Source: a virus (taxonomy: Duplodnaviria > Heunggongvirae > Uroviricota > Caudoviricetes). Taken from it: a DNA stretch of 49,349 nucleotides. This document shows, one piece after another, positions 10,198 through 49,349 of the stretch. Made by a program: the position numbers and the translations under genes. The stretch lies in the IMG/VR virus record IMGVR_UViG_2529292718_000007. One strand, written 5' to 3'. The first letter of the stretch is position 1. Each line of letters begins with the position of its first letter. The notes under the pieces are model-generated. The model was not told where the DNA came from. It worked only from the letters and a program-made list of their open reading frames with translations, and made no database searches.

Positions 10198-11188
10198 AAC
10201 GCTTTTTGATGTTATATATCAGAATGTAAATATTACCGCTCATATGTCACCTGATGTTTTGTCAATGTCTTATACAGATAATGAAGATGGTCAGGTCGAT
10301 GATATTTCTATTATATTAAAAAATGATGATGGGAAATGGTCTGGAGACTGGACACCTAAAAAGGGTGATTTTATTGATTTGAGCTTTAAGCCTATAAATC
10401 AAATCGTCCTTGAGTGCGGGAAATTCCAGGTAGATGGCATAACTTGCTCTGGACCACCTTCTGTGGTTGAGGTAACTGCTGTTTCTGTTCCTGTTTCATC
10501 AGGCATTAGACGTGATTTAAAAAGTAATGCATGGGAAAAAACAACTCTTAAAGATATAGCAACTTCTATAGCTAAATTAGCTAACCTTGAACTGTTGTTT
10601 CTTATTGATGGTGATAGTAATCCATATTATGCGCGTGAAGATCAAATGGAGGAAAGCGATTTAAAATTTCTCCATCGACTTTGCCAGGATGAAGGGTTGT
10701 CGTTAAAGGTCACTGATAGCCAATTAATAATATTTGCTCAAGAGATGTTTGAGCAAAAAGATCCTATCGCTACGCTTACGTTAGGTATTGATGAGATAAT
10801 CAGATATAGCTTTAGCACACAATCTACAGATTTGTATAAAAGTTGCACGTGCAAATATCGCGTACCTAAAAAAAGAAAGTCGCTTTCGTATACTTGGGTA
10901 GATCCATCCGTAGAAGAAGGGTCGAATCTTAAGATAAGAAAACTGGTAGCTAATTTAGATGAAGCAAAACGTAAGGCAAAGGCTGCTTTGCGGCTTAAAA
11001 ATAGATATCAAAATACCGGATCTTTAGTATTGGTTGGAGACACCAGATTGGTAGCTGGTGTAACTATAAATCTGGAGGGATTCGGTTCATTTTCTGGAAA
11101 ATATCTTATATCGAAAGCTGTGCATTCAATTGGGACTAGTGGTTATACCACCTCGATTGATGTCCGAAGAGTAATTAATGGGTATTAA
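10187..11188 (+). CDS. Tail protein D-like (late control D family, baseplate hub)
   Basis: 333 aa; N-terminal pattern resembles P2 gpD/Mu P family; position. Confidence 0.65.
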   Translation: MLRKTLFDVIYQNVNITAHMSPDVLSMSYTDNEDGQVDDISIILKNDDGKWSGDWTPKKGDFIDLSFKPINQIVLECGKFQVDGITCSGPPSVVEVTAVSVPVSSGIRRDLKSNAWEKTTLKDIATSIAKLANLELLFLIDGDSNPYYAREDQMEESDLKFLHRLCQDEGLSLKVTDSQLIIFAQEMFEQKDPIATLTLGIDEIIRYSFSTQSTDLYKSCTCKYRVPKKRKSLSYTWVDPSVEEGSNLKIRKLVANLDEAKRKAKAALRLKNRYQNTGSLVLVGDTRLVAGVTINLEGFGSFSGKYLISKAVHSIGTSGYTTSIDVRRVINGY

Positions 11189-14317: not shown

Positions 14318-17164
14318 GTGAGTAAATTATTATTTACGATGACTGACGCCGGGCGTAAGGCGCTGGTTAATGCCAACAAGACTGGAACAAATAAAGTTGA
14401 GATCGTTTCTGTTGGTTTAGGTAGTAGATATTATGCCACATCAACCACACAAACAAAAATAACAGATGAAATAAAGCGACTTACCACAATAGGAGGCAAA
14501 GTCGTTTCTCCTGATACCATTCATGTAACTGCGAAGGATGATAGTAAAGATGAGTATGTTGTCCATACAATAGGTTTGTATACAAATAAAGGAACATTGT
14601 TTGCTGTATACTCGCAAGAACAAGTAATAATAAATAAAGCATCTTCTACAATTGCTTTAATATCAAGTGATATAGCAATTAAAAATCTTGATACTAAAAA
14701 CATTACATTTGGTGATGTTGAGTTTATTAACCCTCCCGCAACCGAAACTGTTGTTGGAGTAGCAAGATTTGCTAATGAACAAGAAATTGATGCAGGTACA
14801 GATGATTCCCTGGCTGTTTCAGCAAAGCGGCTTAAGCAAGCTATTGTAAAACATGAGCAATCACGTAATCATCCTGATGCAACTTTAACATCAAAAGGCA
14901 TTGTTCAACTCAGTAATGCCACCAATAGCACGTCTGAAAAGCTCGCAGCGACGCCTAAGGCTGTTAAGGCTGCATATGACCTGGCTGACGGAAAATATAC
15001 CGCCCAGAATGCCACCACGGCACAAAAAGGGATAGTTCAGCTCAGTAGTGCCACTAACAGTACGTCTGAAACGCAGGCGGCAACGCCAAAAGCGGTCAAG
15101 GCAGCAAATGACAACGCAAATTCACGTCTGGCGAAAAATCAGAACGGTGCAGATATCCAGGATAAATCAGCTTTTCTGGACAATGTTGGCGTTACCAGCC
15201 TGACGTTTATGAAAAACAATGGCGAAATGCCGCTTGATGCTGATCTGAATACGTTTGGTCCTGTTAAGGCTTATTCAGGTATCTGGTCTAAAGCAACATC
15301 CACCAACGCAACACTGGAGAAAAATTTCCCGGAAGATAATGCTGTCGGTGTGCTTGAGGTTTTTGCTGCCGGCCATTTTGCAGGTACGCAACGCTTTACC
15401 ACGAGAGACGGCAATGTATACATGCGTAAACTCGCCAATAAGTGGAATGGCACTGATGGTCCGTGGGGCGTATGGCGTCACACTCAATCTGCTACCCGCC
15501 CTTTGAGTACGACTATAGACCTGAATACGCTTGGAGCCGCCGAGCATCTTGGTTTATGGCGTAACAGTAGCTCAGCTATAGCTTCATATGAACGCAATTA
15601 TCCAGAGGAAGGCGGCTTTGCTCAGGGGATGCTTGAGATCCTCGAAGGCGGAAATTATGGAAGAACGCAACGTTATACCACTCGCCGTGGAAATATGTAT
15701 GTCCGCTGTCTTGCGGCAAGCTGGGATGCATCAAATCCGCAGTGGGAACCGTGGTTAAGAGTCGGTCATCAGTCAGAGAGTCGTTATTACGAAGGTGATT
15801 TGAATGATGTAACCTCACCAGGTATTTACAGCGTTACAGGTAAAGCGACCAACGGTCCAGTACTGGACGGAAACGGCGTGACTGTACTCGGCATTCTGGA
15901 AGTGTTGAGGCGGTTTGATGGTGTTAATGTATGGCAGCGTTATACAACTGCCGGAACAGGTACAACCCTTAAAGGCCGCACCTTTGAGCGCGTCTTTACC
16001 GGCAGCTCATGGAGCGAATGGCGGGAAGTCTACACCTCGTATTCACTTCCCCTGAATCTGGGTATCGGCGGTGCTGTGGCAAAGCTCACCAGCCTGGACT
16101 GGCAGACCTACGATTTTGTGCCGGGCAGTCTGATAACCGTTCGGCTTGATAACATGACCAATATTCCCGACGGTATGGACTGGGGCGTCATTGATGGCAA
16201 CCTGATAAACATCTCAGTCGGTCCGAGTGATGATTCTGGTTCGGGACGCTCAATGCATGTATGGCGCAGCACTGTAAGTAAAGCCAACTACCGCTTTTTT
16301 ATGGTTCGCATTTCAGGAAATCCGGGAAGCCGCACGATCACGACAAGACGTGTGCCAATTATCGACGAAGCTCAGACATGGATGGCGAAACAGACATTCA
16401 GCGGTGGTCTTTCAGGCGAACTATCCGGCAATGCTGCTACAGCAACAAAGCTGAAAACGGCAAGGACAATTAACGGCGTAAAATTTGACGGCTCGGCAAA
16501 TATTGAAGCGTTTCCGCCAGGTGTTCCGCTGCCGTGGCCATCAGATACGCCACCTGCAGGTTATGCAATCATGCAGGGGCAGACGTTTGATAAGGCAGCA
16601 TATCCGAAACTGGCTATTGCCTATCCTTCTGGTGTTATTCCAGATATGCGCGGCTGGACAATCAAGGGCAACCCCGCCAGTGGTCGGGCCGTATTGTCTC
16701 AGGAACAGGATGGCATTAAATCGCACACCCACAGTGCCAGCGCATCCAGTACGGATTTGGGTACGAAAACCACATCGTCGTTTGATTACGGTACTAAATC
16801 AACGAATAACACAGGTGCACATACCCACAATGTATCTGGTACTGCAAATAGTGCTGGCGCACATACTCATACCGTTCCATTAAGGAGACCAAACAGTGGC
16901 GGTATGAATTTCGACTGGCTGGATGGTTCATCAAGTGGCACGGTGGTGGGGAATGGAACTGTGCCTTCTTCTGGCGCACATACCCACTCAGTATCAGGTA
17001 CCGCTACAAGTGCTGGGGCACATGCACACACTGTTGGTATTGGCGCTCATACGCACTCTGTTAAGATTGGTTCACATGGACACACCATCACCGTTAACGC
17101 TGCTGGTAACGCGGAAAACACCGTTAAAAACATCGCATTTAATTATATTGTGAGGCTTGCATAA
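14318..17164 (+). CDS. Tail fibre protein
   Basis: 948 aa; tandem fibre repeats (GIVQLSxATNSTSE..[10 protein letters not shown] twice), duplicated central domain, His-rich C-terminal repeats (GAHTHxVSGTA...). Confidence 0.85.
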
Positions 17165-17781
17165 TGGCATTCAGAATGAGTGAACAATCACGTACCGTAA
17201 AAATTTATAACCTGCTGGCCGGAACTAATGAGTTTATTGGTGAAGGTGACGCATATATTCCACCTCATACAGGGCTGCCAGCTAATTCTACAGATATCGC
17301 CCCACCGGAAATTCCTGCTGGCTTTGTGGCAGTTTTTAACAGTGAAAATGAATCGTGGAATATTGTTGAAGACCATCGTGGTAAAACGGTCTATGACGTG
17401 GCGTCGGGGGACGCATTGTTTATTTCTGAACTCGGACCGCTACCAGAGAATGTCACCTGGTTGTCGCCAGCAGGGGAGTATCAGAAGTGGGACGGCGTAT
17501 CCTGGGTGAATGATGAGGAAGCAGAAAAACTGTTTCGGATACGGGAAGCGGAAGAGAAAAAGGCAAGGTTGATCCAGGAAGCAACAGATAACATCGCAAT
17601 TCTGCAGGATGCAGTTAATCTTGAAATAGCAACAAACGAGGAAAATTCACAACTGGATTCCTGGAGAAAATACAGAGTATTAGTGAGTAGAATTGACACC
17701 AGTACAGCTCCGGATATCGTATGGCCAGAGCTGATGAATCAGGGTTATGTTCGGGAGGACGAGCAGATAACTTCAGACTGA
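17164..17781 (+). CDS. Tail fibre assembly protein
   Basis: 205 aa; immediately follows fibre gene; Tfa-like N-terminus and acidic coiled C-terminus. Confidence 0.7.
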
Positions 17782-18308
17782 AATTTAGTGATGAATGTTG
17801 AATCATCAGGAATATCATGCAATACCAATGCATGAGCACCTATTGTGACATTGTTTCCTATACGCACTTTGCCACCAAGAATGGTGGCATTACAACCAAT
17901 GGTCACATTATGCCCTATAACAATATCCATATCATTAAATTCCCCGCGAAGTCCAATAGTTACTCCGGGCTTAATTGAACAATTTTCACCGATTGTTACT
18001 TTGTGACCGATAACAACACTGTTGAGATAAGAAATATCAAAGCCTTTCCCTATATTTACAGTTAAAGGGACTGTTACATTATATTTATCAAGAATGAAAC
18101 GTTCTATTTTTCCCGCAATCTTCCGACAGTATCCGCCTTTATCAAAAAGGTATTTGGCTATGCGCCACCAAAATAAATAACGAACCCTTCTATGTTTTAT
18201 TGCGCGAACAATTGCCTTTCGCCAGGAGAAAGGACGCTCGCTACCGATTACTTCATAGTGAATACAGTCTTTAAGTTCATTAATATTCATATCTTTATTA
18301 TTCAGCAT
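17745..18308 (-). CDS. Hexapeptide-repeat acetyltransferase (WcaB/CysE-like)
   Basis: 187 aa; tandem hexapeptide repeats ([21 protein letters not shown]...[14 protein letters not shown]); AT-rich; convergent with and overlapping 3' end of fibre-assembly gene. Confidence 0.75.
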
Positions 18309-18782
18309 AAGATAATCATGTGACCAATTATTGTAATAATTTTAATGGTATGTTTCTACTGGCTATCCAGCGTGTCTGATATCCAGTAACAAATCGTCAA
18401 CACGGGTGCAATCAAATGGTGAGTGTTAAGACTGACCACTTATTACCAGGTATGAGTGGCCAGCATTAAATCAGAACAGCCCTTTAACTGAACTGGCCGC
18501 GCTGTTAAGGGATGATGTCACCTTATCTTTGAAGCCGGACAGCATATTGCTGAACGATGAGTTTACCGCAGGTTTCTGGCTGGGAATCATTGACTGGAGT
18601 TAGGCCAGTAGTATGATGCTCGCAAAACGAGATCCAATTTAGATCCTTTTACTGGTGGATTATCGTTCGATCAGTGAGAGACTTCGTGCATGACCGAAAG
18701 TGTTGTGGTAGAGTTCTCTTAAAACCACGTAACGTGGTTATGATTGTGGGTGTCTGGTTGGAAAGTGACCAGATATGGAAAC

Positions 18783-21904: not shown

Positions 21905-21910
21905 GCTCAT

Positions 21911-22024
21911 AGAATTATATAATTATATATTTATATAAAAAGCGCTTTACAGGTGGGAAAAAATTTCCTATGGTTATACCCGAAACCGAGCGATACCCGC
22001 CCTGGTTAAACCGGAGATAACCCG
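21911..22024 (+). promoter_or_regulatory. Conserved promoter-leader module, copy 1 of 3
   Basis: Near-identical to 30607..30719 and 38793..38906; AT-rich palindromes, then TTTACA (21946-21951), 17 bp spacer containing GGAAAAAATTTCC, TATGGT (21969-21974), then leader with GGAGA SD before ATG 22025. Confidence 0.6.
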
Positions 22025-22405
22025 ATGAGCATGATTAAAATCCGCAAAAACGCTTTCCTTAAAATTCAAACTATCCTGGCTGGTTCTGTTGGCGTGATTT
22101 GCCGTTCTTCTTCAAGCCGCATCGATGACGGCTACGATGATGAGTACCGTGTGTCCTCGTGCGATGAGGCTTTAACCTGGCTGAAGGAGAATCAGGAACG
22201 TGCCCAGGTATATCTGGAAACAGAGAACGGCAATCAGATGCTGCGTATTAGCGGTCGTTATGGATTTGAAACTACATTCATGGCCTATTTTAATCAGGCT
22301 TACTTTGACAAGGAGCTGGCCTGGTACACTGATCGCATGAGCAAAAGCGAGCCAGCCCCGATTACACCGCCGAACAATAAACCATTTTTATTCCTCGTTA
22401 AGTAA
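22025..22405 (+). CDS. Hypothetical protein (first gene of module 1)
   Basis: 126 aa ORF with SD; no family recognised. Confidence 0.5.
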   Translation: MSMIKIRKNAFLKIQTILAGSVGVICRSSSSRIDDGYDDEYRVSSCDEALTWLKENQERAQVYLETENGNQMLRISGRYGFETTFMAYFNQAYFDKELAWYTDRMSKSEPAPITPPNNKPFLFLVK

Positions 22406-23347: not shown

Positions 23348-24490
23348 TTATGGTCTGCTTTTCTGTGCGAGCTTATCAGCACATGTTTTTATCAGCTCCT
23401 GTAGTGTCCTGGCTGGCAGGTTTGCATCCAGTACGCTGAGTATGCTGTTGTGATCTGCCTGGTCGACTACTTTGCCTGTCGGTGGTAATAGCTTGAGCTG
23501 AGGATTCAGGTTTTCGTCAAAGCTGATAAGTGCTCTGGCGTTTCTGAGCAGATCAAGAAGTAAGGCTGATATCACATTTTCCTGAGTCATTGCTGGCAGA
23601 TTTAGCGCCGCTTTGGTTTTCCCTGTTGCCTTGTCAAACTCCTTGATTAGTTCCTTCCTGTAGTTCGGTTCCGTTAATAGCCGATTATGCTCTGTTGCCG
23701 CGCGGATAATCGTTTTTTCCTGGTACAGTCGTTTAGCCAGATCGCGCTCGTACTGTGTTTTTAACACGCTGCTGATAGCGCTAAAGGCTTCAATGTAGGC
23801 CAGCTTGATATCCTTCACGCCTGGACCGTCGATACTTTCCATGAGCAAGGTAAATCCGTCTTTTGTCATGCGATAGATTGTTATTTCGCGGTCGCTTCCT
23901 TCCAACGGTCGTTGCTCTTTAAAGAAATGACGCGCCGCAGCTGTGCGAGGAATGCGTAACGCATCGATGGCCATAACGATGGAATTGTTTGTGGTGCTGA
24001 ATGCTTGGGCAACATCGGCTGAGGTTGTGAGTGGCTCGTTATTGCACACCTTAATGTAAAACATCGGTTTGGCGTTGAGCGTATCGACAACCTCACGAGC
24101 ATTGTTTGGCGAGACGGTTACGGTCGCGGCCGTTTGCGCGTTCTGGTTGAAGTAGCAGTCTTCCAGCCGTTCGAATACATCCCACGCCTGATCGGTTTCG
24201 AGCATTTTAGCGTGACGTGCAGCCCCGCGTTCGGTCCAGAGGATTAGTTTTCTAACGTTATTCGCGATGGTTTGAAAATCTCTTAAAGAGATTTTCAAAC
24301 TTTGGAGATCTGTACCTTTTACAATTATGAAATGTTTTCCTTCTGTAAACCGGGACTTATTACGGTGGTGATTTCTGTGAAGACATTCGACGCTACAGCC
24401 ATATAGTTTGGCAAGCAGCTCCGTGGTGATAACGGGGATCTGGTTATGCAGGATAGGCTGTAGGGTGTTAACGGTCGGAAGAGTTTTCAT
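23348..24490 (-). CDS. ant: Phage antirepressor / Rha-family regulatory protein
   Basis: 380 aa; two Rha/antirepressor-like segments (IPVITTELLAKLYGCSVECLHRN; PLTTSADVAQAFSTTNNSIVMAIDAL). Confidence 0.55.
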   Translation of the reverse strand: MKTLPTVNTLQPILHNQIPVITTELLAKLYGCSVECLHRNHHRNKSRFTEGKHFIIVKGTDLQSLKISLRDFQTIANNVRKLILWTERGAARHAKMLETDQAWDVFERLEDCYFNQNAQTAATVTVSPNNAREVVDTLNAKPMFYIKVCNNEPLTTSADVAQAFSTTNNSIVMAIDALRIPRTAAARHFFKEQRPLEGSDREITIYRMTKDGFTLLMESIDGPGVKDIKLAYIEAFSAISSVLKTQYERDLAKRLYQEKTIIRAATEHNRLLTEPNYRKELIKEFDKATGKTKAALNLPAMTQENVISALLLDLLRNARALISFDENLNPQLKLLPPTGKVVDQADHNSILSVLDANLPARTLQELIKTCADKLAQKSRP

Positions 24491-24678: not shown

Positions 24679-25431
24679 TGTGATATCTCCAGTATATGGA
24701 ACTATCACCGCCATTCGAGGCTAATCAAATGGTGGTGAGCCGTACAGGGTTAGCCTTACCGGACACAATGACGAACCGGCGCGGATTTCTCCGCCCCTGT
24801 ACGACCCACCATAATTTGGGCGTAACAGTGCTCTACGCATAAAAAAACCGCTAACGCGGTATGCGCCATCGTGTTATTCAGGAGGCTAATCCCGGCCGTA
24901 GATTTTGCTACGGCTCGGAAAGTGTCCACCAATGGCGCATTTATGTCAATACGGCGGGGTTTTAACAGAGACAACCACATAGCGTGGGTTTATTGGTAGG
25001 CAGAAACAAAAAAACCGCCCTATTGAGGACGGTTCTTTCGTGCTGATCGGATTCGCGGTCCTTTCAGCATTACGTTGTTGTATAAACAACCACGCAAGCA
25101 CAAGCAGCAAGTTAATTTTACCCAAAAGGTAATAATAGTCCACTATTATGCTTCAAAAAATTGTGGTTCTTGTTGTGCCTGCAAACTCACAGATTGTGGG
25201 TAGGTTACTGATTTTGTGAAAATAAACGAGTTTTTTCGTTTAATTTCTTTCCTATTACTAATCTTAAAATAATCGTAAAATACCTGTGGACCTTCCCGCC
25301 GATTCGCACCCGGGCACCGACTTTAGGGGAGGATTCTCCGTTGCCGTACATGCAAGCACAAGCAGCCGTGCTTGCTCTCGCGTTGTTTTCGTCGGTGGGG
25401 ATGCCGTGAAACGGCCTGTAAGGGCCATACA

Positions 25432-25554
25432 ATGAAAAAATACTGTATGTGTATTTTTATCGTTGTTACTGGGGCTTTGTTTACGCCACATGGGGAGGGT
25501 TGGAAGATTACTGATAACGCTCTGAATGTGACGATAAACATTAGCAGCAAGTAG
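25432..25554 (+). CDS. Small hydrophobic peptide (40 aa)
   Basis: MKKYCMCIFIVVTGALFTPHGEGWKITDNALNVTINISSK; followed by strong terminator. Confidence 0.3.
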   Translation: MKKYCMCIFIVVTGALFTPHGEGWKITDNALNVTINISSK

Positions 25555-25559
25555 CGATT

Positions 25560-25583
25560 AGGCCCCTTCGGGGGCCTTTTTTT
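25560..25583 (+). terminator. Rho-independent terminator
   Basis: AGGCCCCttcgGGGGCCT followed by TTTTTTT. Confidence 0.7.
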
Positions 25584-26054: not shown

Positions 26055-26097
26055 GTGTATCCCCTCTTATATAAATCTATAAAACTATAATTATATA

Positions 26098-26751
26098 TTA
26101 TGCGGCAGTAGTCAGAGCCTCAAGCTGGTTGATAATCCCCTGAATAACGTCGTCTGCCTTTTTGCGTGGCGCAACGTATGAGCACTCAATGAGGCTTAAG
26201 CCCTTATCCTGAGCTTTGCTCAGAGCTGGCTTGTGGGGAATGTACTTATCGACAACAAAGTATGGCGTATTAGCCAGGTACTCTTGGGCTTCAATATAGT
26301 CAGCTTCGTTTTCAGCCGCGCCGGAAAACACCATGCAAATTTTCTTGATTGGTACACCCTTTTTAACGATGCCGTGAGCAGTGTTAACGGTGGTTTCCAG
26401 GTCATCGGTAGAGAATCGGGTTGGCAAAATAACCATATCCAGAAATTCAGATAGCTTCGGTACTGATTCAGATGCGTAGGCACCGCCATCGACGATAACC
26501 AGGTCGTATACTTCTGATTCGATGATTTTCTGGACTTGTGATGGTGTGCCGCACGGCTGCGCCGCGATTGCTGGTTCGATATTGTTGGCCATTCTGCGTT
26601 GTACCCAACGCGTTACCGTTCCGTTAAGCACATCCATATCGATCAGGCATACATTCCAGCCAGCCTTTGCATAAGCAACTGCTAAAGCACGGGCAATTGT
26701 TGATTTGGTTACGCCGCCTTTTCCGTTGAAAATACCTACAGAGATAGTCAT
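26098..26751 (-). CDS. parA: Partition ATPase ParA (small type Ib)
   Basis: Deviant Walker A GIFNGKGGVTKST; track start 26766, ATG 26751 has GGAG SD. Confidence 0.8.
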   Translation of the reverse strand: MTISVGIFNGKGGVTKSTIARALAVAYAKAGWNVCLIDMDVLNGTVTRWVQRRMANNIEPAIAAQPCGTPSQVQKIIESEVYDLVIVDGGAYASESVPKLSEFLDMVILPTRFSTDDLETTVNTAHGIVKKGVPIKKICMVFSGAAENEADYIEAQEYLANTPYFVVDKYIPHKPALSKAQDKGLSLIECSYVAPRKKADDVIQGIINQLEALTTAA

Positions 26752-26775
26752 TTGTCGAGACTCCATGTGTTTGGT

Positions 26776-26879
26776 TATATAATTCTATAAATCTATATTT
26801 ATAGAACGAGGTAAGCATAACCAACTTTTTGGCTGATGAAAAGCGTTTTATATAATTATATAAATCTATAATCATATAA
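26776..26879. promoter_or_regulatory. par operon promoter/operator (possible centromere) with two AT-rich palindrome clusters
   Basis: TATATAATTCTATAAATCTATATTTATAG (about 26776-26805) and TATATAATTATATAAATCTATAATCATATAA (about 26847-26879) upstream of parA; a third cluster at 26067-26100 between parA and parG-like gene. Confidence 0.5.
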
Positions 26880-27276: not shown

Positions 27277-27368
27277 GCGTAGCCTCTTTTATACTTTTAC
27301 ATGTTGTCAAAACCACAAAATGTGGTTTTTTTGAGCGTAGAAATGCACGGCTTTCGCCGTGCTGTGTA

Positions 27369-28025: not shown

Positions 28026-28199
28026 GTCTCATCAATCGTGAATGGTGGGTTATTTATACATTACCACATTTAGTGGTTTTCACATGGTAAGACGAGAGGT
28101 GGACCACAAATAGAAGGTTATTTTTTGTTTCGCCCATTGAAAAACTCACGATATGTGGTTTTAATACCACGTATCGTGGTTTTAACTGGAGTTCGTTAA
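28026..28199. promoter_or_regulatory. Immunity-region divergent promoter/operator
   Basis: Operator-like palindromes ACCACATTTAGTGGT (28063-28077) and ACCACGTATCGTGGT (28166-28180); rightward promoter TTGAAA (28137-28142)-17 bp-TTTAAT (28160-28165) abutting the second palindrome. Confidence 0.55.
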
Positions 28200-30172: not shown

Positions 30173-30550
30173 GTGAGACGCGATCTGGATAGCTTGTTTG
30201 AGCTATGGGCGCTGTGGGTGCGCAATGGCTGCAACGCCCGTAGCGGTTTCGCGTCGATGTTAGAAATGATGATGGTTACGCGCTGCCAGTTTACCGGAGG
30301 GGGCGGCGCACCAAATGACTCACTGGAAACCAGTATAGAGGGAGCGGTGACGGCCCTCACGGTAGTTGATGAGACTGCGGCGCTGGTTGTCCGAATTGAA
30401 TACGGGGCGTGGGAGATTCGGGGCCTCGACATAAATGCACCGCATATTGATAAAGCCCACGCCCTTTCTCTTAGCCTCAGACAGTATCGCCGGAAGCTGG
30501 CAAAAGCCAGGGCGTATGTTGTCGACTATTTGAAAAAGCGAAGAGAGTAA
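30173..30550 (+). CDS. Putative antitermination protein Q-like
   Basis: 125 aa; N-terminal LFELWALWVRNG and C-terminal pattern resemble the small phage Q-like family; assignment from memory. Confidence 0.45.
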   Translation: MRRDLDSLFELWALWVRNGCNARSGFASMLEMMMVTRCQFTGGGGAPNDSLETSIEGAVTALTVVDETAALVVRIEYGAWEIRGLDINAPHIDKAHALSLSLRQYRRKLAKARAYVVDYLKKRRE

Positions 30551-30606
30551 AAGTGTCATTTTGAGCTGTTTTGATGGTGTGTAGACATCGGGAACATCGA
30601 AAATCT

Positions 30607-30719
30607 ATAAATATATAATTATAGATTTATATAAAAAGTGCTTTACAGGTGGGAAAAAATTTCCTATGGTTATACCCGAAACCGAGCGATACCCGCCCTG
30701 GTTAAACCGGAGAAATCTG
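30607..30719 (+). promoter_or_regulatory. Conserved promoter-leader module, copy 2 of 3
   Basis: TTTACA at 30642-30647; about 95 bp nearly identical to copies 1 and 3 (one substitution before the last 10 nt of the leader); ends at ATG 30720. Confidence 0.6.
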
Positions 30720-31787
30720 ATGAATAAACAAGTAATTATTTCTGACTGGATCAACAACCCTAACAGCCTGTTAAGCACTGATACTGGCTACCTATTACGC
30801 CATGTTAATGGTCGTATGGTCAAAAGCGATGAGCACGAAACCTTTTTCTTTGTTGAAGACGATGGGCGTATCTATGAGGATGGTTACTCTTATGAAGCCC
30901 AAACTGGTTGTATCCCTGCGGAGCTGGTGGACGTAACAGAAGATCTGCGCAAAGCATGGCTTGAACAGCAGCAGCGCGGAGATGATTACGTAAACACCTA
31001 TCAGGAACGCCAGAACGCGCGTCTTGCCCGATATATTGCTCGTGCAGAAAAAGCCAGAAAAGAAGGTGCGGTAGCGCATAAGCGAGCGCATGACCTGTTG
31101 GATGTGATCCCGTTAGGCCAGCCGATTTTAGTTGACCATTATAGCGCGAAAGGCCATCGCCGCCGTTTGTCTAAAGCTGATGCGTTATTCAGAAAAGCGT
31201 TTGTTGAATGCGAAAGTAAAGCATCACACTACGAGAGCAAAGCCGCAGGTGTTGGTCGTAATGGAATTTCGTCTGATGATCCTGATGCGCTATTTAAGTT
31301 GCTTCGTAAGCTGCAAGGCTGCATGAAGTCACACGTCAAAATGAAGGCCGCAAATAAGGCCATTCGCAAATACAAAAAAGACCAAATACAGCAGCTTTCT
31401 GCATTAATCGATCTCAGGTTTACAGAAAGCGAAGCCAAAGAGTTACTGGCCGGAGATTTCTGTGGGCACATCGGATTCCCTTCATACGCACTGAGCAACA
31501 ATAACGCCGAAATCAAACGACTACAGAGCCGTATTAAGGAGCTTGAATCGGTCAAGTCTGTAACAGGAGCACAGCGCGAAGAATACGACGGCTTTTCTAT
31601 GGAGATAGATCCAGAGGATAACCGCATCCTGTTTTATTTCCCTGGCAAACCAGAGGCAAACATTCGTTCGCTGCTTAAATCACGCGCCTTTAAGTGGAGT
31701 CCAACCCGTAATGCATGGGTTCGCAAGATTACTCCAAACGCCCTGGCTGATGCCCGATATCTAAAAGAATCGCTATTGAAAGCCTGA
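30720..31787 (+). CDS. DUF3560-like protein
   Basis: 355 aa from ATG 30720 (track ORF 30666 begins inside the conserved leader); QPILVDHYSAKGHRRR and C-terminal FKWSPTRNAWVRK pattern. Confidence 0.5.
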   Translation: MNKQVIISDWINNPNSLLSTDTGYLLRHVNGRMVKSDEHETFFFVEDDGRIYEDGYSYEAQTGCIPAELVDVTEDLRKAWLEQQQRGDDYVNTYQERQNARLARYIARAEKARKEGAVAHKRAHDLLDVIPLGQPILVDHYSAKGHRRRLSKADALFRKAFVECESKASHYESKAAGVGRNGISSDDPDALFKLLRKLQGCMKSHVKMKAANKAIRKYKKDQIQQLSALIDLRFTESEAKELLAGDFCGHIGFPSYALSNNNAEIKRLQSRIKELESVKSVTGAQREEYDGFSMEIDPEDNRILFYFPGKPEANIRSLLKSRAFKWSPTRNAWVRKITPNALADARYLKESLLKA

Positions 31788-31864
31788 CAGTAAGCCTACG
31801 GCGGGACGTCTCCCGCCGTATATAGAATTATATATTTATACAAATGTATAAGGACGCCTCGACA

Positions 31865-35189: not shown

Positions 35190-35581
35190 CTACTATAACC
35201 AAAGAGCGACTGCTGACAATCAAGCAGTGGCGCGAAACATACGGACTTGGTAGCAACGTTGTACTGCCAGCAGAAGAAGCGGAAGAACTGGCACGAATTG
35301 CTCTGGCAGCGCTGGAAGTCGAGCCGATAGGTTTCCGTTGCAGGCGCAATGATAACCTTGGTGATTGGAGTTACGTATATCATCGAGAGCCAGATGATTT
35401 TGAGCGCAAACATTTAGTGATAGAGGGCATTTACGCCGCCCCTCCATCGCCAGTAGTACCGGAAGAAAAACCAATGCCTAATCCTCTTAGCATGTACGCG
35501 GTTGATGCTGTTGCCGCTATTGCAGAGGTGAGAGGCTGGAATGCCTGCCGCGCGGCTATGCTTCATGGGAAAGGAAAGTGA
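35186..35581 (+). CDS. Hypothetical protein
   Basis: 131 aa; ATGA overlap. Confidence 0.45.
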   Translation: MTTITKERLLTIKQWRETYGLGSNVVLPAEEAEELARIALAALEVEPIGFRCRRNDNLGDWSYVYHREPDDFERKHLVIEGIYAAPPSPVVPEEKPMPNPLSMYAVDAVAAIAEVRGWNACRAAMLHGKGK

Positions 35582-35582
35582 T

Positions 35583-35858
35583 ATGGCTACTTTTACCAAA
35601 GAGCAATTGATTGCCCATATTCGTGAACGTAAGGAAGCGCGCCAGAGAATGTTGGATACGGTAACTATTAACCCCGGATTTCGTGAATATCTTGAAAGAG
35701 AGCTTGCTACAGATGAAATTGCACTGGCATCCCTGGCATCTGCACCTGTTGCATGGCTAGTTGGAGGGCGTTTGTTCACAACTGAGATAGCTGCGGGGAT
35801 GTACGCTAGTGAGGTGAGGAAAGCAGTTAAGCCGCTATTCTTTTCTGCACTACTGTGA
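35583..35858 (+). CDS. Hypothetical protein
   Basis: 91 aa from ATG 35583; N-terminus TKEQL resembles upstream ORF. Confidence 0.4.
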   Translation: MATFTKEQLIAHIRERKEARQRMLDTVTINPGFREYLERELATDEIALASLASAPVAWLVGGRLFTTEIAAGMYASEVRKAVKPLFFSALL

Positions 35859-36002
35859 GTATTGTTTTTTTATTGATCGATCAACCACATTTTGAAGGTT
35901 TTTTTATGAAGAAACCTTGTTTTAGGTGGTAACTGGGTGTAGTGTTTCATTTAACGTAGTAAAACTGCGTTAAGCGATTACCGCGTAATTTGTTGCTTTA
36001 TG

Positions 36003-36032
36003 AAGCCCTGCCTTTTCGGCGGGGCTTTTTTT
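36003..36032 (+). terminator. Strong rho-independent terminator immediately upstream of the lysis cassette
   Basis: AGCCCTGCCttttcGGCGGGGCT followed by T8. Confidence 0.75.
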
Positions 36033-36046
36033 TAACGAGGATTTCA

Positions 36047-36442
36047 ATGTCAGCAGAACCAATTTCCGGTACGGCCGTTGCTGCTGGTGGCCTGATGGGT
36101 GCCAGCGTTTTTGGTATTGCAACTGGTATTGATTACGGCGTTGTATTCGGGGCATTTGCTGGCGCTGTTTTCTATGTTGCTACAGCGGTGAATATTAGCC
36201 GTCTCAAGCTGATTGGCTATTTCTTTACATCGTTCATTGTTGGAGTGATTGGAGCGCCGTTAGTTGGCTCATTTCTTGCCAAATGGACCAGCTACAACGA
36301 TCGTCCTCTGGATGCGCTTGGTGCGGTTATTGTGGCTGCATTGACCATTAAAATCCTCACGTTCGTAAACAGCCAGGATCTCGGTAGCATCTTTGGAATG
36401 CTTTCCCGCTTACGTGGAGGGGGTTCAAATGGTAAGCAGTGA
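36047..36442 (+). CDS. Putative holin
   Basis: 131 aa with several hydrophobic transmembrane-like segments; first gene of lysis cassette; GAGG SD. Confidence 0.55.
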   Translation: MSAEPISGTAVAAGGLMGASVFGIATGIDYGVVFGAFAGAVFYVATAVNISRLKLIGYFFTSFIVGVIGAPLVGSFLAKWTSYNDRPLDALGAVIVAALTIKILTFVNSQDLGSIFGMLSRLRGGGSNGKQ

Positions 36443-36725
36443 CCCGTCAGCACTGATTAATGCGGTGCTTTGCACAGTAATAGTAATGGCGCTGATGCTT
36501 TATCGACGGAAAGACTCCAGGCATCGTCCATTTGTTTCCTTTCTGGCTTATATCTACGTCATTGTATACGCCAATGTTCCCTTCCGTTATGTGTTCGGTC
36601 TTTATCAAGAATCCCACTGGCTGGTGGTTATTGGAAATCTGATTATCTGCATCGTTGTTCTGTATTTCAGGGGCAATCTGGCGCGGATAGTTGACGCATT
36701 AGGGTTTAATCATGACCAAAGATGA
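36429..36725 (+). CDS. Membrane protein (second holin/antiholin-like)
   Basis: 98 aa with three hydrophobic segments; GGAGGG SD; overlaps neighbours. Confidence 0.45.
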   Translation: MVSSDPSALINAVLCTVIVMALMLYRRKDSRHRPFVSFLAYIYVIVYANVPFRYVFGLYQESHWLVVIGNLIICIVVLYFRGNLARIVDALGFNHDQR

Positions 36726-37254
36726 GATTTTTAACAGCATTCTTGGAAAAGAGGGCGGCTATGTGGATCACCCTGACGACAAGGGAGGCCCAACAAAGTG
36801 GGGCATTACTCAGAATACTGCCCGTGCTCACGGATACCGTGGCGATATGCGAGATCTGACGCGAGAACAGGCTCTGATGATTCTTGAAGGTGATTATTGG
36901 TATGGGCCTCGTTTTGACCAGGTGGCGCAATTTTCCCCTGATATTGCGGCTGAGATGTGCGATACGGGCGTCAACATGGGGCCGACTGTGGCTACGAAGA
37001 TGCTTCAACGTTGGCTGAATGTTTTCAACCGTGGCGGGAAGTTGTATCCAGATATGGATGTGGATGGGCGAATCGGCCCGCGCACCATTGCGGCATTACG
37101 TGCTTATCTTGGGAATCGGGGAAAAGACGGCGAACGGGTAATGCTGACGGCCCTGAACTGTACGCAGGGCGACCGTTATCTGGACCTGGCGGAGAAACGC
37201 GAAGCAAATGAGTCGTTTGTCTATGGCTGGATGAAAGAGCGAGTGGTGGTATGA
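36712..37254 (+). CDS. Endolysin (GH108 muramidase with peptidoglycan-binding domain)
   Basis: EGGYVDHPDDKGGPTKWGIT signature of GH108; C-terminal PG-binding-like region. Confidence 0.85.
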   Translation: MTKDEIFNSILGKEGGYVDHPDDKGGPTKWGITQNTARAHGYRGDMRDLTREQALMILEGDYWYGPRFDQVAQFSPDIAAEMCDTGVNMGPTVATKMLQRWLNVFNRGGKLYPDMDVDGRIGPRTIAALRAYLGNRGKDGERVMLTALNCTQGDRYLDLAEKREANESFVYGWMKERVVV

Positions 37255-37529
37255 CTGGTTTGAAAGCCGTTTTGTCATTTATCGGCACCGTTATATTGGT
37301 TGCATTCGGTGCGTTTGGTTTTGGTCGTATGAAGGGGCGAGAAAAGGCCGAAGATGAAGCTGAAAAGCAGCGCATTAATGAGAATGCAGCCGCCGTAAAA
37401 GCCACTGCGGAGCGGCGTATAGAAGTGACAAAAGAGGTGGGCAATGTACAGCAGAGTGTTAACCATATGGCTGATGACGATGTTGATCGCGAGCTGCGGG
37501 AGTCGTGGAAGCGTCCCGGTGGTGGTTGA
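37251..37529 (+). CDS. Inner-membrane spanin (Rz-like)
   Basis: 92 aa; N-terminal TM helix then charged coiled region; follows endolysin. Confidence 0.55.
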   Translation: MTGLKAVLSFIGTVILVAFGAFGFGRMKGREKAEDEAEKQRINENAAAVKATAERRIEVTKEVGNVQQSVNHMADDDVDRELRESWKRPGGG

Positions 37530-37653
37530 TACCGCCTGTGATTGGGTAAAGCCCATCTACCTGACTGATCACGATATCGATGTTATGGACCGCCAGACAA
37601 AGAAAGATATTCTGGCTCATAACAGGGCATGGGAAATCAACTGCCCCAAGTAA
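37444..37653 (+). CDS. Outer-membrane spanin lipoprotein (Rz1-like), overlapped frame
   Basis: 69 aa in alternative frame overlapping the i-spanin 3' end; signal-like N-terminus with lipobox LIASC. Confidence 0.5.
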   Translation: MYSRVLTIWLMTMLIASCGSRGSVPVVVDTACDWVKPIYLTDHDIDVMDRQTKKDILAHNRAWEINCPK

Positions 37654-37822
37654 TATATATTTCTATAATTATATAAATATATAGTTACAACATTCTATGC
37701 GCTTTTCTCATGGGCGCACGCATCAACCATGTTTGTCTGATATGCCGCCGCGCCCAAAAATCCTGAATTTATTGGCTGGGATTTTCGTGCGCGGCGCCAC
37801 ACCAGACAAACAGATCAAATAT

Positions 37823-38206: not shown

Positions 38207-38794
38207 ATGGAGGCAATTGCATTGTTTAATCTGATTTATGCAGATCCCCCCTGGGAATACAAAGATAAGTGTAAGGATGGGAATCGTGGAGCTGGTTTTA
38301 AGTATCCAACGATGAAAGCTGAGGATATTGCTCGTATTCCTGTCTTGCAGCTTGCTAATCCTGAATCGTGTTTGTTGGCCATGTGGTGGGTTCCGACTCA
38401 GCCAGAAGAAGCGTTGCTGGTGGTGAAAGCATGGGGATTCAGGCTTATGACCATGAAGGGCTTCACATGGAACAAATGTGGTAGCCGACAACCAGATAAG
38501 CTGGTGATGGGGATGGGGCATATGACTCGTGCAAACAGTGAAGATTGCTTGTTTGCGGTAAAAGGCAAATTGCCGACCCGCCTTGATGCGGGGATCATTC
38601 AGTCGTTTACATCGCCTCGTCTGGAGCATTCTCGGAAGCCTGATGTGGTTCGTGACAAGCTGGTAAGGCTGTTAGGTGATGTTCCTCGTATTGAGCTGTT
38701 TGCTCGCGGTGATTTACCTGATGGTTGGCATGGCTGGGGCAACCAGTGCAATGGAGGTATCCAGTTGCATGATGCTCTCTGGCAAGTGGTATAG
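38207..38794 (+). CDS. DNA N6-adenine methyltransferase (MT-A70 family)
   Basis: 195 aa; hallmark DPPW motif (LIYADPPWEY). Confidence 0.8.
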   Translation: MEAIALFNLIYADPPWEYKDKCKDGNRGAGFKYPTMKAEDIARIPVLQLANPESCLLAMWWVPTQPEEALLVVKAWGFRLMTMKGFTWNKCGSRQPDKLVMGMGHMTRANSEDCLFAVKGKLPTRLDAGIIQSFTSPRLEHSRKPDVVRDKLVRLLGDVPRIELFARGDLPDGWHGWGNQCNGGIQLHDALWQVV

Positions 38795-38906
38795 AATTAT
38801 ATAATTATAGATTTATATAAAAAGTGCTTTACAGGTGGGAAAAAATTTCCTATGGTTATACCCGAAACCGAGCGATACCCGCCCTGGTTAAACCGGAGAT
38901 AACCCG
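38793..38906 (+). promoter_or_regulatory. Conserved promoter-leader module, copy 3 of 3
   Basis: TTTACA at 38828-38833; identical leader and SD before ATG 38907. Confidence 0.6.
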
Positions 38907-39176
38907 ATGAAAGTACAAGACCGTGAAGTAGTAAAAAACCTCCTGCAATACCTGACCTCAAAAAACCTGACTGGCAGCGTTGAGTTCCGTGAAGCGTTAA
39001 AACATTTCAACGTCACTACGGTTTATCGTTGGGAAAACAAACATTCTGAAAGACCGTATGTGGTGGATGTTTTTGCGCCTGATATTGAGTGCGGTTTTGA
39101 GCGTCATTCGTTCAAGGAGAAACATTCTGCTGATTTTTTTTGTGAGGTTGTATGTGCGGCAGGAGATGATGAGTGA
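38907..39176 (+). CDS. Hypothetical protein (first gene of module 3)
   Basis: 89 aa ORF with SD. Confidence 0.5.
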   Translation: MKVQDREVVKNLLQYLTSKNLTGSVEFREALKHFNVTTVYRWENKHSERPYVVDVFAPDIECGFERHSFKEKHSADFFCEVVCAAGDDE

Positions 39177-39373: not shown

Positions 39374-39396
39374 ACCGTAACGATAACGAACAACGA

Positions 39397-39422
39397 GCCT
39401 CGGCAATTGCCGGGGCTTTTTT
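39397..39422 (+). terminator. Rho-independent terminator
   Basis: GCCTCGGCAattGCCGGGGC followed by TTTTTT. Confidence 0.65.
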
Positions 39423-40261: not shown

Positions 40262-40270
40262 CTCTTACAG

Positions 40271-40297
40271 CCTCGCGGTGTCGCGGGGCTTTTTATT
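40271..40297 (+). terminator. Rho-independent terminator
   Basis: CCTCGCGgtgtCGCGGGG followed by CTTTTTATTTT. Confidence 0.6.
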
Positions 40298-40721: not shown

Positions 40722-40955
40722 CGCATTACAGCAGCTCTTGTGCTTATCAGGGGCTGCGATAATGCGCAAACCAAAGCTGCCTCATTAACTCCAGCTCGCT
40801 GTGGAGTTAATGCTGGTGGCTTTTTTATTACTGGAAGGTGGGCGACCGCCGTCAGTTGCGACCTGACGACAGTCATTCATACCCACAGGGTGCCGTGGAT
40901 ACAAACCGAGGCCCACTTGCTTGCACAAGCGAGGGGATTTTAGCGGATAAACGGC

Positions 40956-41579
40956 ATGACAAAACATCTTAATGTGGTTTCTTTACCACTTTCTGTGTTG
41001 ATTGGTTATGAAAAGAACGCTCGCACACACTCCGTGGAGCAGGTAGATCAGATTGTTGCCAGCATACAGGAGTACGGATGGACTAATCCGATCCTGATAG
41101 ACGAGAACAACGTTGTAATTGCTGGTCATGGTCGAATTGCTGCGGCCACTCAGTTGGGGATGGATGACGTTCCCTGCATTGTTCTGGAAGGGCTAACGGA
41201 GAATCAGAAGAAGGCATATCGTCTGGCCGACAACCGTATTCCGCTGAATGCTGGTTGGGATGAAGAGCTGTTAAGCGCGGAGCTTGCAGATCTTGCGGCC
41301 GATGATTTTGCTCTGGACTCAATTGGTTTTACTCAGCGCGAACTGGATAACTTATTGAGTGCGGCGGTCTACGATGACACAGAGGGTATGGATATCCCAT
41401 TTGAGAAGGATGAGGCCAAATCAGGCGTAAAAGTTCAGTACCTGTCATTTGGAGGTCATAAAATCCCGGCAACGGATGAGGAAGCGGATCGTTTTGACTG
41501 CGCGGTGTCTCGTTATGTTGATGATAATGGCAGCTATATCGGATTTGTATCCGCATTGCTGGCTGGGGAGGGGTGCTGA
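40956..41579 (+). CDS. ParB-like nuclease domain protein
   Basis: 207 aa; N-terminus parallels 44245..44835 (KNARTHSVEQVDQIVASIQEYGWTNPILIDENNVVIAGHGRIAAA). Confidence 0.7.
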   Translation: MTKHLNVVSLPLSVLIGYEKNARTHSVEQVDQIVASIQEYGWTNPILIDENNVVIAGHGRIAAATQLGMDDVPCIVLEGLTENQKKAYRLADNRIPLNAGWDEELLSAELADLAADDFALDSIGFTQRELDNLLSAAVYDDTEGMDIPFEKDEAKSGVKVQYLSFGGHKIPATDEEADRFDCAVSRYVDDNGSYIGFVSALLAGEGC

Positions 41580-47499: not shown

Positions 47500-49070
47500 A
47501 TATTCTTGATCGAGTTATTGCGCCGTTTTCACCTCAGAGGGCATTAAATCGAGCTTTGGCAAGAAAACGGTTAGAAGCACTTGAAGGTATTAATAACCTT
47601 GGATATTCACGTCATGGTGCAAGCACTCATAAAAAATCATTAAGGGGTTGGTTTAGTAAAGCTGGTTCTCCTGATGATGATATTGTTAAAAATATAGATA
47701 AATTGCGTGAGCGTTCTCGTGATCTCTTCATGGGAAACCCGCTATCTGTTGGCGCAATAAAAACTATCAGGACAAACGTTGTTGGTTCCGGTTTAAAACT
47801 AAATGCGAACATTGATGCCGATTTCTTGGGGATGACGCAGGAAGAAGCGCGAGCATGGGAAAAGCATGTTGAGCGTGAGTTTAGATTATGGGCTGATTCT
47901 CCAAATTGTGATGCATCAAGAATGTGTACTTTTGGACAATTGCAATCATTGGTCCAAATATCTGCGTTAACATCTGGCGATATATTTGCTGCGCTACCAG
48001 TTATTAAGCGTAAGGGTGTTATATATGATTTGTGCGTCTATTTAATTGAAGGTGATCGTGTTTGCAATCCAGAGGATCGTTTTATACCAAATCTTTACGG
48101 TGGCGTAGAGGTTGGTGAATTTAGCGAGCCTGTGGCGTACTGGGTTGCAAAACATCACCCAGCCGGGACTTCTGGTTTTGTAACCCGCAAGTGGGAACGT
48201 ATTCCCGCATATGGGAGTAAAACAGGAAGAAGAAATATTCTGCATGTCATGCAGGATTTTGAAAGGCCTGGGCAACGCCGTGGCGTTCCTGTCCTTGCTC
48301 CTGTAATTGAAGCATTGAAGCAGTTAGGGCGATACACCGATGCTGAATTGGTTGCTGCGGTTGTGTCAGGGATGTTTACTGTCTTTATTAAAACAGACGC
48401 TCCTGATGGGCCAGTCGGTGAATCGGGTATCCCTCAGTACGAGCAGATCGATAACCATGATGATAACACCCAAGAAATGGGGAATGGCTCCATAGTAAGT
48501 TTGGGTGAAGGTGAGTCGATAGATACAGCAAATCCCGGGCGACCAAATACGGCATTTGATGGTTTTGTTGTCGCCATATGCCGTCAAATTGGGGCTGCTT
48601 TAGAACTCCCTTACGAACTCTTGGTAAAGCATTTTACAGCAAGTTATAGCGCAAGCAGGGCCGCATTACTTGAAGCCTGGAAAATGTTCCGTATGCGACG
48701 TGACTGGATGGTTCAGTCATTTTGCCAACCGATCTATGAGGAATGGTTGGCCGAAGCCGTTGCTAAAGGTCGTGTTATTGCCCCTGGTTTTTTTTATGGG
48801 CCTGAATATCGCGCTGCATGGAGTGGCGCTCAATGGTATGGCCCATCACAAGGCCAATTAGATCCTCTTAAAGAAGTCAAAGCTGCAAAACTGCGTGTTG
48901 AGGAAACATTCTCTACCCGTGAAAAAGAAGCGGCTGAAATGTCAGGTCTTAACTGGGAAGAAACCGCACAAATCTGTGGCAGAGAAGAGAATGCTCGCCG
49001 TGAGTTGGGGCTTATTACACCTCCTGTTTCTGAGGTAAATGAACAAAATATGGAGACTGATGATGCCTAA
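47496..49070 (+). CDS. Portal protein (lambda gpB family)
   Basis: 524 aa following terminase/gpW; C-terminal 240 aa repeated at 1..723 because the window wraps. Confidence 0.85.
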   Translation: MNILDRVIAPFSPQRALNRALARKRLEALEGINNLGYSRHGASTHKKSLRGWFSKAGSPDDDIVKNIDKLRERSRDLFMGNPLSVGAIKTIRTNVVGSGLKLNANIDADFLGMTQEEARAWEKHVEREFRLWADSPNCDASRMCTFGQLQSLVQISALTSGDIFAALPVIKRKGVIYDLCVYLIEGDRVCNPEDRFIPNLYGGVEVGEFSEPVAYWVAKHHPAGTSGFVTRKWERIPAYGSKTGRRNILHVMQDFERPGQRRGVPVLAPVIEALKQLGRYTDAELVAAVVSGMFTVFIKTDAPDGPVGESGIPQYEQIDNHDDNTQEMGNGSIVSLGEGESIDTANPGRPNTAFDGFVVAICRQIGAALELPYELLVKHFTASYSASRAALLEAWKMFRMRRDWMVQSFCQPIYEEWLAEAVAKGRVIAPGFFYGPEYRAAWSGAQWYGPSQGQLDPLKEVKAAKLRVEETFSTREKEAAEMSGLNWEETAQICGREENARRELGLITPPVSEVNEQNMETDDA

Positions 49071-49349
49071 TTGGTGGGAAATAAAAAATAGCACGGGTGA
49101 AGATGACTCTCCGGCTGAGCTTTTAATTTACGGGTATATTGGTGAATTTGATGAGGTTTCTTCTTCTGACATAGTTAATAAATTAAAGGATATTTCATCA
49201 AATACTATCAACGTAAAAATTAATAGTTATGGTGGTTCTGTTTTTACTGCTCAAGCTATTCTTTCATCATTAAAGCGTCATAAGGCGAATATTACGGTTT
49301 ATATCGACGGGATTGCTGCATCGGCTGCAACTATTATTGCAATGGCGGG

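Follow-up and report, generated by a model that had tools for sequence, protein, structure and literature searches.

The subject of this work is the non-coding block in front of the lysis genes in a 49,349-nucleotide (nt) stretch of tailed-phage DNA (IMG/VR record IMGVR_UViG_2529292718_000007; the whole stretch is referred to as the window). We propose that positions 35917-36033 constitute a late/lysis control cassette, the equivalent of pR'/qut/tR', and that the lysis genes, and probably all late genes, depend on a Q-like protein of 125 amino acids (aa), which is encoded at 30173-30550 on the + strand and would act in trans as an antiterminator. On the sequence evidence described below we give this reading a probability of roughly 0.6. 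The Q-like protein is annotated as hypothetical (PHROG 5285, unknown function). In the sequence-only reading of this DNA, the terminator before the holin gene was taken for a layout expected of antitermination-dependent lysis gene expression, and the open reading frame (ORF) at 30173-30550 was named as the only Q-like candidate. Both views have held up: the terminator cannot be bypassed and is kept with compensatory changes, the ORF appears to be tied to the Q21 superfamily, and it is the sole ORF of the window that matches the Q-like family profile, no other ORF matching either of the two profiles used. What had been missed is the likely target of the Q-like protein inside the flagged interval (35859-36046, 188 bases), where a promoter has a conserved -10-like pause hexamer behind it.

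The terminator was correctly described as strong, intrinsic and immediately upstream of the holin gene. It occupies 36002-36033 on the + strand, about 50 nt past the predicted transcription start, and resembles tR' in its placement. By the scan, its stem, GAAGCCCTGCC-TTTTC-GGCGGGGCTTT at 36002-36028, has 11 pairs, 7 of which are G-C, and a 5-nt loop; eight T residues follow at 36026-36033. Folded alone, it has a free energy of -20.2 kcal/mol (z = -5.8), a value reached by none of 200 shuffled sequences. The minus strand has no T run past the stem, and the terminator is thus one-directional. The T run ends just 13 nt short of the holin ATG (36047), a gap that makes a promoter between terminator and holin impossible and leaves no place for the independent lysis promoter that had been considered as an alternative. 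Equivalent terminators in relatives fold with -12 to -19.4 kcal/mol. Their stems show compensatory changes (CC..GG to TT..AA: AAGCCCTGCC/GGCGGGGCTT to AAGCCTCGCTT/AAGCGGGGCTT), and the terminator is retained in place even in relatives in which the lysis cassette and the upstream gene both differ.

Terminators are common at the boundaries of gene clusters, and the 5.3 kb between the Q-like gene and the leader are filled with mosaic accessory genes (DUF3560, Ead/Ea22, DUF551-like). The structure could be seen as the ordinary end of a rightward accessory operon, lysis being brought about by low read-through or by holin timing alone. This we consider highly improbable. Homology with the Yersinia phages vB_YpM_41 and vB_YpM_44 begins exactly at 35856, which indicates that the non-coding stretch travels with the lysis genes and that the terminator belongs to the lysis module; moreover, a non-coding block under strong constraint is retained along with the terminator, and a separate lysis promoter has no room.

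The constraint on this block is evident from comparison with Salmonella plasmids and two IMG/VR contigs, in which 35862-35971 is 84-87% identical despite a different upstream gene and a different entire lysis cassette. In the core (35915-35971) only 2 of 57 positions differ between the E. coli and Salmonella versions, whereas the coding DNA that they share is 68-80% identical. More diverged copies of the leader came from loci fetched via the Q-like protein (designated by L numbers), and 13 lineages (E. coli, Salmonella, L015, Pantoea, L017, L018, L024, Serratia, L149, L150, L151, L152 and L153) were aligned with one single-column gap only. The conservation pattern of this alignment reads as that of a promoter followed by a second -10-like hexamer six bases past its -10. 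The candidate -35 of the late/lysis promoter is TTGTTT (35917-35922, + strand like all elements of the block), whose TTG (35917-35919) is invariant in 13 of 13 lineages and lies 17-18 nt from the candidate -10, TAGTGT (35940-35945; TAnnnT), of which the T, the A and the final T are invariant in all 13 as well. The TT just past the -10 (35946-35947) is invariant or nearly so. The hexamers are fixed and stand at fixed spacing, while most of the spacer varies in sequence and keeps a constant length of 17-18 nt. The exception within the spacer (35923-35939), which is our candidate Q-binding element, is an invariant TG at 35927-35928 (within GTGGT; T23 and G24 of the alignment); a second repeat, TGG, 7-8 bp further on, is present in some lineages only. 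In phage 21, the Q-binding element lies between the -35 and the -10 (PMC6606751), and by analogy the Q-like protein may bind at the spacer.

Six nt past the -10, at about +1 to +6, stands the second -10-like hexamer, TAACGT (35952-35957), a candidate sigma-dependent pause element. Across the 13 lineages it takes the form (T/C)AACGT, in which the A and the final GT are invariant and the central AC is nearly so; variants are CAACGT in L150 and L152 and CATTGT in L151. The conserved A and T are the equivalents of the -11 and -7 positions needed by sigma region 2, and the sigma-dependent pause element of a Q-dependent late promoter is just such a downstream -10-like hexamer (PMC6606751; bioRxiv 10.1101/2022.01.24.477500). 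A candidate pause site, TGCG (35966-35969), follows 9-12 nt beyond the hexamer; its G (G63 of the alignment) is invariant, T62 and C64 are near-invariant, and it matches TnYG, the consensus for the scrunched paused complex (bioRxiv 10.1101/2022.01.24.477500), so that polymerase might be expected to pause there. Judged by sequence, the conserved columns are laid out as in a Q-utilisation site (PMC6606751; 10.1101/2022.01.24.477500).

The window contains a single copy of TTG-N20-TANNNT-N6-TAACGT, a pattern that none of 100 shuffled versions contained. This pattern was found in exact form in 17 of the fetched Q-like loci, once in each, and always on the strand that encodes the Q-like protein. The homologous hexamers of L149 were called independently by a consensus promoter scan (TTGTAA-17-TATAGT). 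A scan of viral contigs with the 17-mer TAGTGTTTNNNTTAACG returned mainly chance matches and zero new lineages.

The element is followed by a terminator after about 40-90 nt in 10 of the 13 aligned lineages, namely the window, Salmonella (L003), L015, Pantoea (L021; also seen in L005), Serratia (L023), L149, L150, L151, L152 and L153. The genes that come next are holin genes in the window, Salmonella, L015, L150 and L153, spanin genes in Pantoea and probably in L149, and tail genes in L152. There, 40 nt lie between the end of the Q-like gene and the element, and a terminator and late genes come after the element, which is the classical order of lambda, Q-pR'-tR'. The L152 segment (10001-10620 of JBHUIF010000017.1, GCA_042682845.1) carries, in sequence, an S24-type repressor, a 137-aa gene, the Q-like gene, the promoter with its CAACGT element, the terminator and P2-like baseplate and tail genes, and is possibly part of a tailocin-like cluster.

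The second line of evidence is the protein itself. A hidden Markov model search with the first alignment yielded 130 cluster representatives (50% identity), mostly of about 105-165 aa. When the 109-member family alignment was compared with the PDB, Q21 was the sole significant match (E 2.5e-5; next match 0.2), and the aligned part comprised the ELW(A/G)xW N-terminus and the helix following it. By hhalign, the same profile matched the QuuD-family alignment over 112 colinear columns with 74.5% probability (E 2.7e-5), and QuuD itself matched Q21 with E 7.6e-7. Weak direct matches to the Pfam model PF06530 (Phage_antitermQ) were given by 10 of the 109 members, the best with E 1e-4. Searches with the single protein had produced no PDB sequence and no Pfam match even at E 10; as these and a shallower profile failed, the link to Q21 is visible only with the 109-member profile. 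The AlphaFold model of the Q-like protein (pLDDT, the predicted local distance difference test score, 77; pTM, the predicted template-modelling score, 0.67) shows a helix-turn-helix resembling sigma R4 (H3-H6), against which an N-terminal helix packs, and its top four Foldseek matches in the PDB were Q21 structures, aligned at full length with probabilities of 0.77-0.94. Matches in BFVD were uninformative. The gene is preceded by genes for a Ref nuclease and a DUF1064 protein (a Holliday-junction-resolvase PHROG), compare quuD, which follows rusA in DLP12. On profile homology, then, we place the Q-like protein in the Q21/PF06530 superfamily, as a divergent member that falls outside PF06530 by the curated threshold.

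The fold also bears on the view that the Q-like protein acts on a weak late promoter as a sigma-region-4-like activator or appropriator, the terminator being partly leaky and serving merely to dampen or insulate. Helices H3-H6 of 21Q themselves fold like sigma R4 (PMC6606751), and sigma-R4 matches are therefore to be expected and do not discriminate between the two roles. An activator leaves unexplained why a strong terminator lies 40-90 nt downstream in most lineages and why there is a second -10-like hexamer, and Q21 is the only significant PDB sequence match of the family. We think it improbable that the protein acts in this way.

The mechanism that we infer concerns start site, pause, DNA binding, loading and read-through, and it builds on what was computed: the terminator and its position, the conservation pattern of promoter and pause element, and, for the protein, its fold and its remote homology. 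Host sigma-70 RNA polymerase would initiate near 35952 from the weak promoter TTGTTT-17-TAGTGT. Sigma region 2 would then re-engage with the -10-like hexamer TAACGT (about +1 to +6), and a pause would follow near the conserved TGCG. Without the Q-like protein, transcription would end at 36033, giving an RNA of about 80 nt and leaving the holin, endolysin and spanin genes silent. Derepression of the rightward early operon would let the Q-like protein accumulate, whose sigma-R4-like helix-turn-helix would bind DNA in or next to the promoter spacer and load onto the paused polymerase. The polymerase so modified would pass the terminator at 36002-36033, and probably also the + strand terminators at 39395-39418 and 40269-40290, on its way to the structural genes. 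The distance of 5.3 kb between the Q-like gene and the site presents no difficulty, because Q would act in trans.

The most serious alternative places the loading site elsewhere. The window contains three near-identical modules of 120 nt (21909-22028, 30605-30724 and 38791-38910), each composed of AT-rich 8-bp TATA-type repeats, the promoter TTTACA-17-TATGGT, a 50-nt untranslated region, a Shine-Dalgarno sequence and an ATG. Copy 2 directly follows the Q-like gene, as the sequence-only reading had stated, and its promoter (30642-30670) sits where pR' would sit in a lambdoid phage. The Q-like protein could load at these modules, copy 2 in particular, and lysis transcripts would then arrive from 5.3 kb upstream and run through the terminator, the leader block being something else. 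The modules are nearly identical to one another and match the sigma-70 consensus well (9/12), they have AGGTGG just past the -35 in common with the lysis leader, and there is no strong terminator between 30670 and 36002. On the other hand, past their -10 the modules have no -10-like hexamer bearing the conserved A and T, and the full motif exists only at 35917-35957. In the Salmonella relatives a further gene intervenes between the Q-like gene and the module, and more distant relatives have only AT-rich repeats at the module position, yet carry a TAACGT-type element elsewhere. Loading at the modules is for these reasons doubtful. Further arrays of the same AT-rich repeats are scattered in the regulatory region (26061-26098, 26775-26879, 31814-31850 and 37647-37692), and in distant relatives similar arrays come after the Q-like gene and abut the terminator before the holin; that the arrays are dispersed partition or regulator sites is a possibility.

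A further element of the leader is a 10-bp hairpin or imperfect palindrome, UUAACGUAGU-AAA-ACUGCGUUAA, at 35951-35973 (+ strand), which appears in the minimum-free-energy fold and overlaps both the pause hexamer and TGCG. It could act as a nut/boxB-like or put-like element in transcripts initiated upstream and, shortly ahead of the terminator, either recruit a factor or modify the polymerase directly, antitermination then being RNA-based and the Q-like protein uninvolved. The hairpin is stable and lies about 30 nt before the terminator; in the diverged Pantoea version, CGUGAC-GAA-GUCGCG, a U-G wobble occurs at the same stem position, which suggests selection on the + strand RNA; and most close relatives have a small Arg-rich ORF just upstream. 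However, both arms are conserved as sequence and not by covariation, so that a structural role of the hairpin is hypothetical, and the length and loop vary or the hairpin is lost altogether (L149, L151). Fixed hexamers at fixed spacing around a variable spacer are the pattern of a promoter and not of an RNA, the Arg-rich ORF is absent from the window, and there is no Rfam family match. Such an RNA-based scheme we hold to be improbable.

The small or unannotated ORF in question (about 60-66 aa) has an Arg-rich N-terminus (MRLRAVFRYSER...) and a conserved QLKQWH.GEYYG, and ends at the leader start in most relatives (L001, 12480-12640; L002, about 17040-17215; L003, 7801-8000; L015, 11249-11443). 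An N-like role for it was rejected, since the ORF is absent from the window; there, another gene (35541-35858) abuts the leader. Another candidate was a mini-ORF at 35906-35932 (MKKPCFRW-stop), which an SD-like GAAGG precedes by 7 nt. Every close relative has a readable in-frame xPCFxW-stop peptide, its start being shifted in some (ATG TAA ATG in L015); as the mini-ORF overlaps the proposed -35 and spacer, its conservation may be that of the promoter. Leader-peptide attenuation was dismissed because there is no synonymous codon variation, the start moves in L015 and the conserved bases are explained by the -35 and spacer. No Rfam family matched the flagged interval at the gathering threshold. 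A match to the small RNA GcvB (RF00022) at 35877-36033 was likewise discarded: it scored 33.7 bits against a gathering threshold of 42, with 48 model positions deleted (E 5e-6 in a 301-nt search). This sub-threshold match owes its score to the G/U-rich stretch GGUGUAGUGUUU together with two hairpins and the terminator, and the homologous leaders of L003, L015 and L021 gave no such match.

Several observations weigh against control by a Q-type antiterminator. The Q-like protein fails PF06530 even at E 10, and its homology to known Q proteins exists at the profile level only. A shallow profile of 24 sequences gave only a helix-turn-helix match and hhalign probabilities of 1-3% (2.9%), and the Foldseek E-value against Q21 is about 0.3. 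The protein has only 125 aa compared with the 162 aa of Q21, and residues 23-46, the would-be RNA-exit ring segment, are modelled with pLDDT below 50; the same residues form the most sequence-conserved segment of the protein. The promoter of the window matches the consensus weakly (3/6 and 3/6) and went uncalled in the scan, whereas lambda pR' is strong, and the spacer has one conserved motif where the Q-binding element of phage 21 has two direct repeats. No copy of the promoter and pause motif was found in the Q-like loci L020, L147 and L022. L022 encodes a 99% identical Q-like protein on a near-identical element, whose match to the window stops 2 kb before the leader. In L017, L018, L019 and L024, finally, the first strong terminator is 0.85-1.7 kb away and not about 50 nt.

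In these four loci (L017, about 14451-16170; L018, about 15460-16690; L019, about 16840-18765; L024, about 14845-15700) the element is followed by conserved DNA without long ORFs, at the end of which stands a very strong terminator. The stretches match no Rfam family and may be a long structured leader or a non-coding RNA. L017, L018 and L019 have a second terminator directly before the holin, abutted by AT-rich repeats; the holin of L024 was not located. As the same leader has grown to 0.85-1.7 kb in these loci, a more far-reaching view can be put forward, in which the leader RNA or its 5' hairpin (35951-35973) is a functional partner of the Q-like protein or acts in trans, and in which the 125-aa Q-like and PA0613-like proteins form a distinct, widespread class of late-gene antiterminators of phage-plasmids, prophages and tailocin clusters, pyocins included, that load in a manner unlike Q21. 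We regard this as speculative and unlikely.

The part of the leader upstream of the core (35862-35916, + strand) is A/T-rich and contains AACCACA as well as the inverted repeat AAGGTTT/AAACCTT. It is kept in the E. coli, Yersinia-phage, Salmonella and L015 versions despite their differing upstream gene, is not kept in more distant lineages, and is possibly an UP-like or a regulator site. The AACCACA, which had been noted as a half operator-like site, is indeed present at 35883-35889 and is conserved in close relatives, but does not rise beyond chance: the window contains 20 copies of AACCACR where 11.6 ± 3.1 are expected, and a lone copy therefore carries no weight. Palindromes of the form ACCAC(A/G)-N3-6-(T/C)GTGGT are found at 18717-18744, 27305-27332, 28146-28179 and 40957-40984. 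One of them, located between the genes for the repressor and for the first early product, additionally has the appearance of a terminator hairpin right ahead of the ATG at 28200. The palindromes are likely the operators of the XRE-type repressor, and the lone AACCACA resembles one half of them.

Downstream of the terminator, the lysis genes are all on the + strand. The first is the holin gene (36047-36442; Phage_holin_8, Pfam E 1.7e-37), whose ATG is preceded by GAGGA. It is followed by a second holin or antiholin-like gene (36393-36725; Phage_holin_3_7, E 1.2e-17), the true start of which probably lies inside this ORF; the PGAP product in the relative L002 has 98 aa. Next come the endolysin gene (36712-37254), with a GH108 and a peptidoglycan-binding domain (E 4e-26 and 1.7e-26), and a spanin pair (37251-37653). 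The latter consists of an Rz-like gene (37251-37529; PHROG 1026, 'Rz-like spanin', E 5.9e-32) and an overlapping ORF (37444-37653) that presumably encodes a lipoprotein, as suggested by the lipobox motif LIASCG in its translation. More strong + strand terminators are found further on, at 39395-39418, 40269-40290 and about 40779-40830, each abutting the ribosome-binding site of the next gene, in a region that leads to the ParB-like and terminase genes. As they directly precede later genes, processive antitermination would fit the arrangement. The segment 39385-39459 is about 91% identical to L015, exceeding the flanking coding DNA.

The replicon as a whole is circular, because the stretch overlaps itself: 1-1002 correspond to 48348-49349. 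Its size is about 48,347 bp, and the window slightly overshoots its own end (1-300 equal 48348-48647, and further repeats extend to 49315). It is nearly identical to 47-51 kb E. coli plasmids and to the Yersinia phages vB_YpM_39, vB_YpM_41 and vB_YpM_44. The PGAP annotation of a relative lists RepA, ParA, an XRE-type repressor, a long rightward operon, the lysis cassette and P2-like head and tail genes, and this combination of RepA/ParA with P2-like head and tail genes identifies the replicon as a phage-plasmid. Literature specific to this group of phage-plasmids was not found. Elsewhere in the window, Rfam families were matched by a C4 antisense RNA, isrK, ryfA and one tRNA. The first three (24728-24816, minus; 24841-24914, minus; and 25286-25582, plus) lie upstream of a gene for an ORF6N/Rha-type antirepressor (23348-24490, minus), and the region looks like P1/P7-style immI antirepressor control beside a possible ryfA-type toxin RNA.

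If the proposed mechanism is correct, a textbook mechanism would be extended and not replaced, a known way of working being found in an unannotated protein family. A function is thereby proposed for a family left hypothetical by PGAP, Pfam and PHROGs (PHROG 5285). The signature TTG-N17/18-TAnnnT-N6-(T/C)AACGT...TGCG with its terminator would mark the late/lysis switch of the common 47-51 kb E. coli and Salmonella phage-plasmids and of more distant elements, and the lysis decision of these plasmids becomes directly testable.

Among known systems, the closest likeness is to phage 21. With its Q protein (structures 6P18/6P19 and 6JNX/6JNY) the Q-like protein has in common profile-level homology, an N-terminal helix on a sigma-R4-like helix-turn-helix, and the motif ELW(A/G)xW. 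At the phage 21 site (PMC6606751), likewise, a promoter is followed by a -10-like hexamer within the initially transcribed region, and an intrinsic terminator precedes the lysis and late genes. In contrast to 21 Q, the shorter window protein, which fails the Pfam model, has no long H5-H6 loop; 5.3 kb lie between its gene and the presumed site, whereas the Q gene of phage 21 adjoins its site; and the spacer has a single TG motif where phage 21 has two TGAGCA direct repeats. The carriers also differ, a RepA/ParA phage-plasmid with a P2-like tail here as opposed to a lambdoid phage. Lambda Q/pR' (pause at +16/+17, 6S RNA, tR') resembles the proposed system in the short leader that is terminated without Q, in the early pause hexamer followed by a TnYG-type site, and in having the lysis genes first past the terminator. 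Unlike the protein described here, lambda Q belongs to an unrelated family; the lambda leader measures 194 nt as compared with the predicted 80 nt or so, and pR' is the stronger promoter. The proposed system would also work like AlpA at the alpBCDE lysis cassette of P. aeruginosa, but AlpA is chromosomal and part of a programmed cell-death pathway. The PA0613 family (NCBIfam NF051483) is matched by 56 of the 109 Q-like family members (best E 6.7e-9) and, end to end, by the window protein (E 2.5e-4). As the scores are far below the cut-off of 100 bits, the Q-like family is a sister group of the PA0613 family and not the same family; by these scores the Q-like protein is nevertheless closer to it than to the curated PF06530 model. 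Genes of both families stand in lysis or tail clusters, PA0613 itself beside the holin gene PA0614 in the R/F-pyocin cluster of P. aeruginosa. A function of PA0613 was not described in the literature found, and the comparison suggests that this protein of the pyocin cluster may be an unrecognised Q-type antiterminator.

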